Positions 9,775-24,525 of a stretch of DNA of 43,903 bases are shown here, in pieces (positions within the stretch are counted from its first letter, which is position 1; every line of letters begins with the position of its first letter). The notes under the pieces were generated by a model. It did not search any database, had not been told where the DNA came from, and saw nothing but the letters and a program-made list of their open reading frames with translations. The DNA lies in NCBI GenBank assembly GCA_947623815.1, contig CANQHO010000003.1:1-43903 (forward strand), given 5' to 3'. This stretch comes from an uncultured Bacilli bacterium (GTDB lineage: Bacteria; Bacillota_I; Bacilli_A; RF39; UBA660). The translations under genes and the position numbers were made by a program.

Positions 9775-9915
9775 TTAAAATTTTTTTATATTTTTTCTTG
9801 TCTTTATATTATCTTGCAATTCTTCATATTTTTGACCATGTTTGTTTTTGATTTCAATTATTTGTTCCTTATTTTTTTTGATTTTTTCTAATAATACCTT
9901 TTTTTCTTCATTCAT
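9775..9915 (-). CDS. Small basic coiled-coil-like protein (46 aa), not in the ORF track
   Basis: Hand-translated MNEEKKVLLEKIKKNKEQIIEIKNKHGQKYEELQDNIKTRKNIKKF. AAGAGGT RBS overlaps the stop of the upstream gene, and it ends just before the terminator. Confidence 0.6.
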   Translation of the reverse strand: MNEEKKVLLEKIKKNKEQIIEIKNKHGQKYEELQDNIKTRKNIKKF

Positions 9916-9918
9916 AAA

Positions 9919-10602
9919 TTACCTCTTGATATAATTTTTTTTACATTTAACACTAAATTCATCATATTTTATTACATTAAATGGTATATTGGTTTCTTTT
10001 CTAACCTTATACTCTAAAAAATTAGTTAATACATCTAATTTTCCCAAATTATTAGCTAAAGAAGAAACTTCATAATTATTTTTATACTGATTATATCTAA
10101 CTCCAATAATAATAGAATTACTAGGTTTATAATATTTCTTATTATCTGGGCCATAATTTATATTCACATTTTCTTCATTAGGATTTTCTAAAATAACATT
10201 TTGATAAGTATTTTCGATAAATTGGAAATTTGAGGAGTTTAAAGATAAATCACCAGTTTTATATATAGACCATAAATAATTTATCTGTTCTCTAGTTAGT
10301 CGTTCTATATAGATGTTATTTCTTAAATAAAAATATTTTAAATACCCTTCTGAAAGATGTTGATAAAGATCTTTTTCTTCATAAGGAACTAAAGGAAAAT
10401 CATCTATTCTTTTTTCTAACTGTTTATCAACATCTAACAAATAGTATTTTTTCATCATAAATTGAATAAGTAAATTATTATAAACATTATATAAAATCAA
10501 ATAACCATTCATTTCTGCATCAGACTTAATATTACATTCTTGTCTTATATTAGGCCTTTCTAATAACAAAAATTCTTCATCTATAAAATTTACTTTATTC
10601 AT
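9919..10602 (-). CDS. Hypothetical protein coupled to the giant T7SS-locus gene (candidate immunity or accessory)
   Basis: 227 aa; start overlaps the upstream stop (ATGA); no signal peptide or recognisable family. Confidence 0.7.
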   Translation of the reverse strand: MNKVNFIDEEFLLLERPNIRQECNIKSDAEMNGYLILYNVYNNLLIQFMMKKYYLLDVDKQLEKRIDDFPLVPYEEKDLYQHLSEGYLKYFYLRNNIYIERLTREQINYLWSIYKTGDLSLNSSNFQFIENTYQNVILENPNEENVNINYGPDNKKYYKPSNSIIIGVRYNQYKNNYEVSSLANNLGKLDVLTNFLEYKVRKETNIPFNVIKYDEFSVKCKKNYIKR

Positions 10603-22900: not shown

Positions 22901-24473
22901 TATTAAGTTCGACTTGTAAATACTCATTGACAATTTTAGCACTTTCACTGGTAGTCGAATAAAATCTAAAATTACGATCATTACTAAAAATGTGATTGGT
23001 GTAACGAAAATTATCCCAATATTTTTTTCTTTCTTCATTAGTAAAAATAACTAATTTAAAATCTTCATAACTATAAAAAGTCAATAATTGTAAGATAATG
23101 TTATACATAAATGGTATGGTATTATTAGTAAATCCCATAACAGCAGTTATTTTATTTTCATAAAAAGAATAACCAATAGGAACGTTTTCAATATATTTAA
23201 ATTCTTCTACCAATTGATCAGCCTTTTCTCTAAGTTCATCTTCTTCAATTGTAAAGTCTTCATCGGGATATTGAATTTCAACATCTAATTTTTCATTTCC
23301 TATTCCTATTCTAGTTACTAAAAAATCACTTTGATCAATTCTTTTATCCCAAAAGTTAATTCTTTTATTTTCAATTATTTGTAAACATTCTTCTACCGTT
23401 AATAAGTTTTCTATTAAAATCTGTTTTTGTAAATTAGCTTCTCTCATTAAATCTAATTTTTTTTCGTCTAAATAACGACCATATTTAGTAATGATTTCTT
23501 TTTTTCTTTTCTTTTTCATATGTTTATTGTAAGCTTGAGTCAAAATAGGCCATAATATCATACTAATAAACATAGCCCCACTAGTTACTAATTGCGGCCA
23601 AGAATCTTCCATTGTTGTTTGTTTATTATTTATTCTTATAATAGTACTTACTAACATAGTAAGAGACATAATTCCCATGGTAAGCATTGGTCCAATTACT
23701 AAAATAACTGGCAATTCATTATTATTGCCATCTCTAGGTGGTTCACTTAATTTTATTTTTTTGGTTTCGATTATTCTTCTTAATCTAGGTGATTTAGAAT
23801 AGTAATCTTTTTTATCATATAAATCAACATCTTTAAATTCTCTTTGTTCTATTTTTTCTGGTTCAGGAAACAAATAAGGCGTTAAATGAGCTTCATTATT
23901 TACAATTATGTTATTATTATATATCAATACTATTCCATTTAAAAACACGATTCTAAATCCATAAAGTTCTACTGTATCACCAAATTTTATATAACTAGCA
24001 TTACCTTCTAAGGAATATTTATTTATATATACTGGGGTATTTCCTTTTTTTTGCAGTAACAAATAGTTATTTTGGTAAGATATTTGTAATACTAAATCAT
24101 TTAAATATTTACTTGGAAATTTTAAGGTAGCATTTTCAGTATTACCGATAATAAGATTTATATCAGTTTTATATGTATATGAAAGCATCACTCCAGGACT
24201 TATTTGGCTAACATAAATTAAATAACTAACATTATCTCTTTTTAAAATATAAAAATTATTAACTGCTAATTCAACTTGAGCTACTTGAACCTCATTTAAA
24301 AAGACTTGAACATTTTTACTTTGGCATAAAACCCACTTATCGTTTATAGCTTCAATATTGATAAGTTTATTTTCTTCATCTTTATTTACATCAAATAAGA
24401 AACTACCAGCCACTTCAAAAGGAAGTTCAAAATCAACTATTCTGTTAGCTAAATATAAAGATATCTTCATCAT
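19923..24473 (-). CDS. essC: Type VII secretion ATPase EssC (FtsK/SpoIIIE family)
   Basis: 1516 aa; FHA-like beta-rich N-terminus, SPR motif, two TM helices, [65 protein letters not shown]; degenerate D2 and D3. Confidence 0.95.
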   Translation of the reverse strand: [1516 protein letters not shown]

Positions 24474-24496
24474 AACACCTCTTTATTGTCATAATG

Positions 24497-24525
24497 ATTA
24501 TATCAAATTAAAGTATTTATTTCAA
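24497..24525 (-). promoter_or_regulatory. Sigma-A promoter of essC
   Basis: TTGAAA-N17-TATAAT with extended TG. Confidence 0.75.

Follow-up and report, generated by a model that had tools for sequence, protein, structure and literature searches.

We describe a locus in an uncultured Bacilli bacterium of the family UBA660 that appears to encode a lineage-specific, stripped-down type VII secretion system (T7SS) related to T7SSb, the type represented by Ess of Staphylococcus aureus and Yuk/Yue of Bacillus subtilis. In this reading, to which we give a probability of roughly 0.6, a translocon consisting only of EssC and a YukD-like protein would export WXG-related proteins and a polymorphic toxin. 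The locus occupies positions 9775 to 24525 of the window, by which we mean the whole stretch of DNA that was analyzed (43,903 nucleotides, contig CANQHO010000003.1 of assembly GCA_947623815.1). All coordinates follow the numbering of the window, "family" and "class" are the host bacterium's own taxonomic family and class, and "the window's EssC" is the copy encoded at 19923 to 24473. Both secretion itself and the sufficiency of the parts listed here are what we infer from sequence.

It is unsettled which parts of T7SSb form the channel and which are accessories. In the cryo–electron microscopy (cryo-EM) account of the B. subtilis system, YukB is central, YukD is clasped to it, and YukC forms an outer crown, with no full hexamer obtained (PMC12637312). 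The S. aureus genetics presented in PMC9436818 treats EssB, EsaA, and EssA as translocon parts. A lineage that keeps EssC and YukD without detectable EssB, EsaA, or EssA offers a minimal set of two machine genes that could be tested directly by reconstitution and structural studies, and it suggests that parts thought essential in model bacteria are apparently dispensable. It also extends the RefSeq-based catalog of T7SS variants to uncultured gut Bacilli for which metagenome-assembled genomes are the only source. Furthermore, it indicates a lineage-specific cargo set of double-length WXG-related proteins and of toxins with disordered N/S/T-rich heads that have no LXG domain.

We propose that the only dedicated machine parts would be the membrane ATPase EssC and a ubiquitin-like protein of the YukD/EsaB type, the latter clasped between the FHA region and the DUF domain of EssC as in the solved B. 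subtilis YukB-YukD complex. EssC oligomers would form the membrane channel alone, without an EssB/YukC crown, EsaA/YueB, or EssA. D1 would be the working ATPase domain, with D3 degenerate across the family and the D2 P-loop lysine lost in the clade of the window's paralog. A second unit would encode cargo and helpers: two extended WXG100-related proteins, two helical proteins of about 80 to 100 amino acids (aa), and a 2351-aa polymorphic toxin–like protein with a papain-like Cys-His-Asp end, accompanied by a probable immunity protein.

essC is coupled to a gene for a predicted ubiquitin-fold protein

The window's essC (19923 to 24473, minus strand) encodes a 1516-aa protein with an FHA-like N terminus, two transmembrane (TM) segments, a DUF domain, and the ATPase domains D1 to D3. 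Its product matches the NCBIfam equivalog model for firmicute EssC (TIGR03928, T7_EssCb_Firm) at 936 bits over residues 223 to 1498, against a cut-off of 778.4, and PF01580 (FtsK_SpoIIIE) at 138 bits in two stretches. Judged by these profiles, it is a genuine EssC. The adjoining gene (19667 to 19933, minus strand; 19667 to 19990 in the list of open reading frames, ORFs) encodes an 88-aa ubiquitin-fold protein of the YukD/EsaB kind. Its likely start, the ATG at 19933 to 19931, follows an AGAGGA-like site and overlaps the final 11 nucleotides (nt) of essC, whose stop codon lies at 19925 to 19923. The original prediction, made from the letters of the window alone, had described essC as coupled to an esaB/yukD-like gene, and this overlap bears it out.

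The ubiquitin-like part is recognized by its fold. The window's YukD-like protein has no match to Pfam YukD, and its paralog reaches only 13.9 bits, below the cut-off. A profile search of the PDB with the family alignment returned noise or coiled-coil matches only and did not recover YukD; because such searches were uninformative, we took the fold from structure prediction. An AlphaFold2 model built on a 57-homolog alignment has a beta-grasp fold (predicted local distance difference test, pLDDT, 93.1). The top PDB match of this model in Foldseek is the EccD5 chain of the ESX-5 complex (7np7_D2; E = 4.4 × 10−6), followed by ubiquitins. By predicted fold, and not by sequence profile, the EsaB/YukD ubiquitin-like part of T7SSb is present.

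The predicted complex of EssC residues 1 to 660 with the YukD-like protein scored 0.81 (runs of 0.82, 0.81, and 0.80), compared with 0.02 for the best control. A mark of 0.81 is reached by 58 of 80 solved complexes and by 2 of 110 mismatched pairs. The runs share at least 76% of their contacts, the partner has a pLDDT of at least 84, and the predicted contacts involve the FHA region, the linker at residues 201 to 218, and the DUF domain. This is the same arrangement as the "hand catching a ball" reported from cryo-EM of B. subtilis YukB-YukD (PMC12637312). Note that a YukB-YukD-like complex, a textbook pair, has already been solved, and the score therefore shows likeness rather than binding.

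The two genes are inherited together. We sampled 121 genomes of the family, one per genus, and found EssC above the cut-off in 41 of them, with intact ORFs of 1500 to 1557 aa. A profile of the YukD-like protein matches 43 of the 121, including all 41 that are EssC-positive; of the two extra genomes, one has an essC broken across contig ends and one has no essC. This shows that essC and yukD are co-inherited across the family. Both are also under purifying selection, as the ratio of nonsynonymous to synonymous substitution rates (dN/dS) against same-genus orthologs is 0.19 for essC and 0.17 for yukD. The value for a second essC in the same genome is 0.11.

EssB, EsaA, and EssA are undetectable in the genome, and EssB and EsaA across the family

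Profile scans found no EssB, EsaA, or EssA in the window, in agreement with the original prediction, which had seen no EssB, EsaA/YueB, or EssA-like gene there and proposed searching the whole genome for them. That search, with profiles for EssB/YukC, EsaA, and EssA, found none elsewhere in the genome (1.355 Mb in 96 contigs, 94.6% complete). In this genome, nothing matches PF10140 (YukC) at E ≤ 10, and nothing matches TIGR03929 (EsaA); the best score for TIGR03926 (EssB) is 12.6 bits, on a PrkC-type kinase. The best score for PF10661 (EssA) is 15.9 bits, in a frame with five stops, the search having low power for a protein of ~140 aa. We also ran lineage-tuned profiles, made from 9 to 13 canonical loci in other families of the same class, where the gene order is esxA-esaA-essA-esaB-essB-essC. 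Run against all six-frame ORFs of the genome, these profiles reached at most 16.6 bits (EssB), 15.1 bits (EssA), and 8.6 bits (EsaA). As a positive control, we used a 363-aa gene that neighbors an essC of the same class; it matches YukC at 171 bits.

Two candidates from these searches were rejected. A weak EssB/EssA match that recurred on contig C1 is the PrkC-type kinase (Pkinase at 204 bits, plus three PASTA domains), and the 250-aa ORF on contig C22 that gave the 16.6-bit EssB match belongs to no informative family.

The same absence extends across the family. None of the 121 family genomes has EssB (best 19.9 bits), YukC (best 21.8 bits), or EsaA above the cut-off. Six matches to the EsaA N terminus below the cut-off (47.6 to 69.7 bits, in ORFs of 645 to 719 aa) were set aside, as they do not track EssC, and four of the six genomes have no EssC. 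Among 200 scored genomes of the class, YukC passes the cut-off in all 12 EssC-positive genomes outside the family, with scores of 132 to 316 bits in these other families, but in none of the nine inside it. The record OZ006994.1 (L043), titled as a circular chromosome, encodes an intact 1533-aa EssC in the gene order of the window; neither YukC nor EsaA is matched there at E ≤ 1. Four other relatives also have no such match at E ≤ 1, including one (L102) with a fragmented essC. In the latter (L102:10004-13974; CP091726.1, a record titled as a chromosome), essC is split into at least five ORFs, the best segment being 61% identical, and is either a pseudogene or an artifact of assembly error. Because of this split, we do not count it as a second closed-genome example of an intact system.

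These results bear directly on whether the missing genes are an assembly artifact. The host genome is a fragmented draft of 96 contigs, and its completeness of 94.6% leaves room for lost genes. However, neither EssB/YukC nor EsaA rises above the cut-off in any genome of the family sample, OZ006994.1 has neither YukC nor EsaA, and contiguous housekeeping genes flank essC at both essC loci of the host, so we regard an artifact as extremely improbable. Nor is the loss of EsaA explained by loss of the wall, since five penicillin-binding protein transpeptidase genes in the genome point to a walled cell.

The system might instead not be minimal at all: functional equivalents of EssB, EsaA, or EssA could have diverged beyond detection, or non-homologous ones could be encoded at another place in the genome. 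Profiles demonstrably lose sensitivity in this lineage, as the YukD-like protein itself scores only 9.9 to 14 bits with Pfam and same-class YukD/EsaB profiles. EssC has also retained its FHA-like N terminus, through which a substitute partner could act. The PrkC-type kinase with PASTA domains could be such a partner: its topology is that of EssB and of the TsxD kinases, and kinases are listed as components of T7SSc, T7SSd, T7SSe, and T7SSj in the descriptions of PMC11217815. Yet PrkC is a housekeeping protein, and EssB (~360 aa) and EsaA (700 to 1500 aa) are large proteins, the former family being readily scored elsewhere in the class. Canonical loci of the class have the EssB, EsaA, and EssA genes directly upstream of essC, whereas only yukD and WXG-type genes are conserved near essC in 96 loci. 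We therefore consider an undetected or non-homologous partner unlikely, though it is the main rival explanation.

Family EssCs form a separate clade with degenerate ATPase domains

We built a tree of 42 EssCs (1487 columns; IQ-TREE in quick mode, LG+G4), using shorter EssC-like proteins of another family as the outgroup. The 24 family EssCs form one clade (Shimodaira-Hasegawa–like approximate likelihood ratio test, SH-aLRT, 100) that is sister to the 12 YukC-linked EssCs of the class (100). The tree covers the host's class only, with no Bacillus or Staphylococcus EssC; its groups coincide with taxonomic families, and several rows have deviant composition. Within this sampling, the family EssCs stand beside the YukC-linked EssCs and are not nested within them. 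The original prediction would have been refuted by essB and esaA orthologs elsewhere in the genome and an EssC nested within canonical T7SSb, and this test does not refute it. Its central idea, a reduced or variant T7SS, finds support both in this separate clade and in the failure to detect the partners in the genome, the family, and the chromosome titled as circular.

Sequence features set the family EssCs apart from the YukC-linked ones. A 15-residue insert lies in the linker between FHA region and stalk (residues 200 to 214, ~23832 to 23876), inside the predicted YukD interface. A second insert, of 12 residues, lies in the short extracellular loop between TM1 and TM2 (residues 286 to 297, ~23583 to 23618).

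Another family of the same class has shorter EssC-like proteins (1153 to 1307 aa; 307 to 382 bits on TIGR03928, below the cut-off), which were seen in 6 of the 15 genomes sampled from it (L036:5582-12163, L148-L153). YukC was not found alongside them. In L036, the gene adjoins two WXG100 genes and one for a 707-aa protein with SLH and Big_2 domains. These loci may be yet another T7SS arrangement.

Only the first of the three ATPase domains is intact throughout. D1 carries a Walker A motif (GMTGSGKSE) and a Walker B motif (DEFAEL) that are invariant in 20 of 20 aligned EssCs. The original prediction had called the Walker A of D2 degenerate and that of D3 unrecognizable, and both observations hold: D2 of the window copy reads GNDGSERE, without the Walker A lysine, and none of the 24 family EssCs has a Walker A in D3. 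The D2 lysine is lost in five of these 24, namely in the window clade (window, L019, and L022) and independently in L143 and L145. G-x-GK is kept in D2 of the other 19 and of all 12 YukC-linked EssCs, 7 of which also retain GK[ST] in D3. In S. aureus, as described in PMC9436818, FHA2 recruits EssB, and D2 motifs sustain the EssC-EssB-EsaA-EssA complex. By analogy, partner loss and the decay of D2 and D3 in this lineage would form a coherent picture.

Motif loss of this kind also raises the possibility that these loci are decaying T7SSb remnants that no longer secrete. The core partners are missing, D3 and in part D2 are degenerate as just described, and L102 has its essC in pieces. Decay is nevertheless improbable, as intact EssC ORFs of full length persist in 41 of 121 genera, with two to three paralogs in several genomes. 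Moreover, dN/dS stays at 0.11 to 0.19 for essC and yukD, the D1 motifs are invariant, and variable toxin-like cargo genes are retained beside essC.

Only yukD and WXG-type genes are conserved beside essC

We clustered the ORFs of 100 loci, comprising the window, 19 loci from relatives, and 80 from public genomes; 96 of the loci hold essC. A YukD-like gene is present in 88 of these 96, at a median distance of one gene. Of 99 essC genes, 78 are followed immediately by yukD, and 6 have it upstream. WXG100-type genes occur in 46 of the 96 loci, and no other gene family occurs in more than 23. The suggestion in the original prediction that a wall-spanning part is encoded elsewhere gained no support, as none was found and only yukD and WXG-type genes are conserved beside essC. 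Loci encoding an EssC with over 50% identity to the window copy have the order essC, yukD, genes for proteins of ~213, ~185, ~100, and ~80 aa, and then a variable large gene.

One T7SS sub-clade has a further gene, about two genes from essC. It encodes a protein of ~560 aa that has a hydrophobic segment at its N terminus, resembling that of a lipoprotein in some members, an HExxH motif, and no Pfam match. The gene is found at L052:14919-16568 and in 11 other loci.

The host genome holds a second essC-yukD locus, on contig C19 (L018:8736-14257). Its EssC has 1519 aa, is 36% identical to the window's, and carries an FHA domain that passes Pfam (24 bits; cut-off, 20.7). The gene is coupled to one for an 85-aa YukD-like protein and accompanied by two convergent genes for helical proteins of ~110 aa, one with an NWSG motif. 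The locus sits directly between ftsY/ylxM and RNase J. With essC, yukD, and two small genes, it is barer than that of the window.

The original prediction had also suggested that adjacent pilin-like proteins replace the wall-spanning part of the machine. Three such proteins are encoded on the minus strand at 6056 to 7954, 24596 to 26194, and 26216 to 27649. Each has a signal peptide, Cys-rich repeats, a two-TM segment weakly like T4SS_pilin (18.9 to 20.7 bits; cut-off, 26.6), and a hydrolase-type domain. The C-terminal domains differ, being Amidase_3, a GDSL lipase/esterase, and a Cys/His-containing domain without a Pfam match; judged by these domains, the proteins may be membrane-anchored wall-modifying enzymes. 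Their nearness to essC, the pilin-like segment, and the wall hydrolase–type domains (Amidase_3 and GDSL) are what speak for a replacement. However, among the 99 other loci only one contains a homolog. The orthologous loci contain none, and the genes upstream of their essC are unrelated. No such gene accompanies the second essC, and in the window the pilin-like genes are split from essC by their own terminator-like hairpin and by the essC promoter. We thus find this replacement very hard to credit, and this part of the original prediction fails.

Extending the stripped-down T7SS from this locus to the whole family is a more tentative step, for which we would put the odds somewhat below even. 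In that case, EssC with its clasped ubiquitin-like protein would be the complete translocon throughout the family. A T7SSb-like ancestor would have lost EssB, EsaA, and EssA, and the reduced form would then have diversified into paralogous systems with their own WXG-like proteins and toxins. If true, this would be a further T7SS subtype beyond T7SSa to T7SSj and a natural minimal T7SS, and the pseudokinase crown and the wall-spanning EsaA would be accessories rather than parts of the export mechanism.

The second unit encodes WXG-related proteins and a toxin-like protein

The second unit has the layout given in the original prediction, with four small helical or WXG100-like genes, a giant gene, and two downstream genes, as far as the reading frames reveal it. 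All are on the minus strand, and they are packed or overlapping. The first gene (18846 to 19487; 18846 to 19535 in the ORF list) encodes a 213-aa WXG100-related protein with a C-terminal extension. The second (18216 to 18767; 18216 to 18794 in the ORF list) encodes a 183-aa WXG100-related protein with a C-terminal coiled extension. Both proteins are about twice the length of WXG100. We compared their families by hhalign with an alignment of WXG100 proteins from the lineage, 26 of whose 33 members are matched by Pfam WXG100. The match covers the first ~90 residues in each case, with a probability of 91.5% (E = 8.5 × 10−7) for the 213-aa family of 10 sequences and of 95.5% (E = 1.4 × 10−8) for the 183-aa family.

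Traces of the signature motif are visible in both families. In the 213-aa family, the W is invariant and followed by x-S/T/G, the window copy having W-x-S instead of W-x-G. The 183-aa protein has a WQG motif; its alignment shows W-x-G/D, with the W in five of eight homologs. Each gene is syntenic in eight loci, and dN/dS of the WXG-related genes against same-genus orthologs is 0.46 to 0.57. The 213-aa protein has no Pfam match, and a homolog search with it returned three proteins, the query included. Searches of PDB profiles with both family alignments gave noise or coiled-coil matches only. On its sequence, the 213-aa protein is a candidate EsxA-like core protein or substrate.

Two smaller genes follow and occupy the same positions in orthologous loci. 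The 100-aa helical protein (17921 to 18223) is a possible Lap-like helper, with weak matches only to ESAT6_2 (20.7 bits) and DUF3958 (14.1 bits, E = 0.06). The 80-aa helical protein (17669 to 17911), another possible helper, has no family match above noise. Sister loci contain DUF4176 (91.9 bits, with one member scanned) and large proteins with weak LXG/WXG heads.

The giant gene (10599 to 17654) encodes a modular toxin-like protein of 2351 aa. It matches no family above threshold, even when scanned piecewise against Pfam. Its C-terminal domain is recurrent. Residues ~2075 to 2351 (~277 aa) recur at the C termini of eight otherwise different proteins, at 30 to 52% identity. Two of these, in L045 (1449 aa) and L032 (804 aa), are encoded beside other essC genes, and the other six are database proteins of 556 to 1817 aa. 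A Cys, a His, and an Asp are invariant across the nine sequences. The model of this domain has a pLDDT of 82, and Foldseek found no PDB match at E ≤ 0.001. In a wide VIA search, the best match was IdeS, with a Z score of 7.3 [root mean square deviation (rmsd), 3.8 over 168 residues], values below 8 being middling, and almost all of the top 50 matches are clan-CA papain-like cysteine peptidases. The giant C terminus is modeled as papain-like cysteine peptidase–like, with a fold similarity that is middling. An internal stretch is weakly like Tox-ART-HYD1 (19.1 bits; cut-off, 25) and is repeated in another relative's protein.

Immediately downstream, a gene for a 227-aa protein (9919 to 10602) starts within the end of the giant gene, with an overlap of 4 nt. 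The 227-aa protein has no family match, and a homolog is encoded directly 3′ of the L032 protein that shares the giant C-terminal domain. A shared C-terminal domain on variable proteins together with a cognate small gene fits a polymorphic toxin with an immunity gene. From this sequence pattern, we infer that the giant protein is a toxin and consider the 227-aa protein its probable immunity protein. A 46-aa ORF (9775 to 9915), known from the ORF list only and without a meaningful family match, closes the unit; its coding status is uncertain.

The N terminus of the giant protein is rich in N, S, and T, like those of the large proteins that sister loci encode in the corresponding place. Long, low-complexity heads of this kind, which are not LXG, open the large variable proteins of L043, L045, L048, and the window (16965 to 17654). 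They may be a different T7 targeting region or just a linker.

The locus fits none of T7SSa to T7SSj as described

The closest likeness is to T7SSb. The two share an EssC of the TIGR03928 type with an FHA-like N terminus, two TM segments, a DUF domain, and D1 to D3; a free-standing ubiquitin-like protein of the EsaB/YukD type, here predicted to lie between the FHA region and the DUF domain; small proteins of the WXG100 superfamily, here putative; and large modular toxin-like genes, accompanied by small helical helpers and followed by an immunity-like gene. The differences are substantial. EssB/YukC, EsaA/YueB, and EssA are undetectable in the host genome, and EssB/YukC and EsaA exceed the cut-off in none of the 121 family genera. 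Whereas yukD is directly downstream of essC and translationally coupled to it here, in T7SSb it lies upstream, between essA and essB. Last, family EssCs form a clade apart from the YukC-linked ones, with degenerate D3 and (here) D2 P-loops and family-specific inserts.

Other variants differ in their components. In the account of PMC11217815, T7SSc to T7SSj were defined from RefSeq, each with at least one component beyond TsxA, TsxB, and TsxC, which most of them share (T7SSd is without TsxB, and no clear TsxA is given for T7SSi). The simplest is T7SSg of Acetivibrio/Paenibacillus, with an FHA-less ATPase and a DUF5050 propeller (Garrett, Higginson, and Palmer 2024, PMC11217815). It resembles the present system in its very small component set around TsxA, TsxB, and TsxC, but TsgC is described without FHA, whereas EssC here has an FHA-like N terminus, and T7SSg has TsgL and an adjacent Tad pilus cluster. 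DUF5050 (PF16472) has no match at E ≤ 1 in the host genome, and neither essC locus has Tad genes.

T7SSf and T7SSj of Clostridia are similar in having a TsxC with FHA domains that groups near T7SSb, and in the presence of TsxA and TsxB. As described in PMC11217815, they also have a DUF6382-FHA protein and a PPM phosphatase, together with either a TadZ-like AAA+ ATPase or a kinase plus a large Ig-like protein. DUF6382 (PF19909; TsxJ of T7SSe, T7SSf, and T7SSj) has no match in the host genome. No kinase, phosphatase, or separate FHA gene is present in either essC locus, and none is conserved in the 96 loci.

With T7SSa, the mycobacterial ESX type, the system shares an FtsK/SpoIIIE-type ATPase contacted (here by prediction) by a ubiquitin-like module, and the DUF and stalk of YukB are reported to superpose on the same EccC domains (PMC12637312). 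In contrast, the ubiquitin-like module is a free protein here, and EssC has an FHA N terminus. EccB, EccD, EccE, and MycP belong to T7SSa; they are not among the parts counted here, and no profile search was aimed at them. As set apart by the descriptions in PMC11217815, the system fits none of T7SSa to T7SSj. A literature search within one collection of papers returned no description of a T7SSk subtype and nothing relevant on EssC systems without EssB.

Several points weigh against an EssC-YukD translocon with WXG-related and toxin cargo. In S. aureus, the D2 motifs, EssB, EsaA, and EssA are needed for translocon assembly, according to PMC9436818, so a system that functions in their absence would differ markedly from that picture. 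The absence of EssB, EsaA, and EssA is judged here by sequence profiles and synteny only. Given that the YukD-like protein is nearly invisible to such profiles, a similarly diverged small protein, for example EssA, could be missed, and the neighborhood analysis would overlook a non-homologous partner whose gene is distant from essC. On the cargo side, Pfam WXG100 has no match at E ≤ 10 in the host genome, and the WXG relation comes from profile-profile matches. Pfam LXG is likewise absent from this genome. Against the WXG100 alignment, residues ~225 to 560 of the giant protein have an hhalign probability of 1.5%; the protein has no recognizable LXG/WXG head, and it is a candidate T7 substrate by its position only.

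Transcription signals, host, and surrounding genes

The original prediction gave essC its own sigma-A promoter and a terminator after yukD, and each claim stands in part. The sigma-70–type promoter candidate at 24497 to 24525 (minus strand; TTGAAA, 17 nt, and TATAAT with an upstream TG) lies directly 5′ of essC, past the hairpin that ends the preceding gene. Its 11/12 consensus match is joint best in 9300 to 25000, the other 11/12 site being on the plus strand. Promoter-like sites in this interval are not enriched, with 108 found against 121.6 ± 9.9 in shuffles; because the site class does not exceed shuffle expectation, the essC promoter, although plausible by sequence, is a candidate only. 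For the terminator, RNA folding finds a 17-bp hairpin (−16.9 kcal/mol, z = −5.86, with none of 200 shuffles as stable) and then a U-rich tract in the 57 nt past the yukD stop (19612 to 19668, minus strand). This supports a terminator candidate, but a consensus scan called none there.

The relatives are metagenome-assembled genomes, including Candidatus Faecisoma, and family genomes measure 0.5 to 1.6 Mb. DNA of the locus was found in four DNA runs of one rabbit-gut metagenome study. The window also carries the sporulation genes spoIVA and spoVIF and, at 28520 to 34873 (minus strand), the heat-shock genes hrcA-grpE-dnaK-dnaJ, in which a gene for oligoendopeptidase F (M3 family, 29635 to 31434) separates dnaK from dnaJ. 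On the other side of the locus, two short ORFs on the plus strand match fragments of larger profiles. The ORF at 2250 to 2549 matches a RhuM fragment (the first 32 of 252 profile positions), and that at 8985 to 9269 matches a PD-(D/E)XK transposase fragment (positions 39 to 120 of 229). Both are probably gene remnants flanking the T7SS region.

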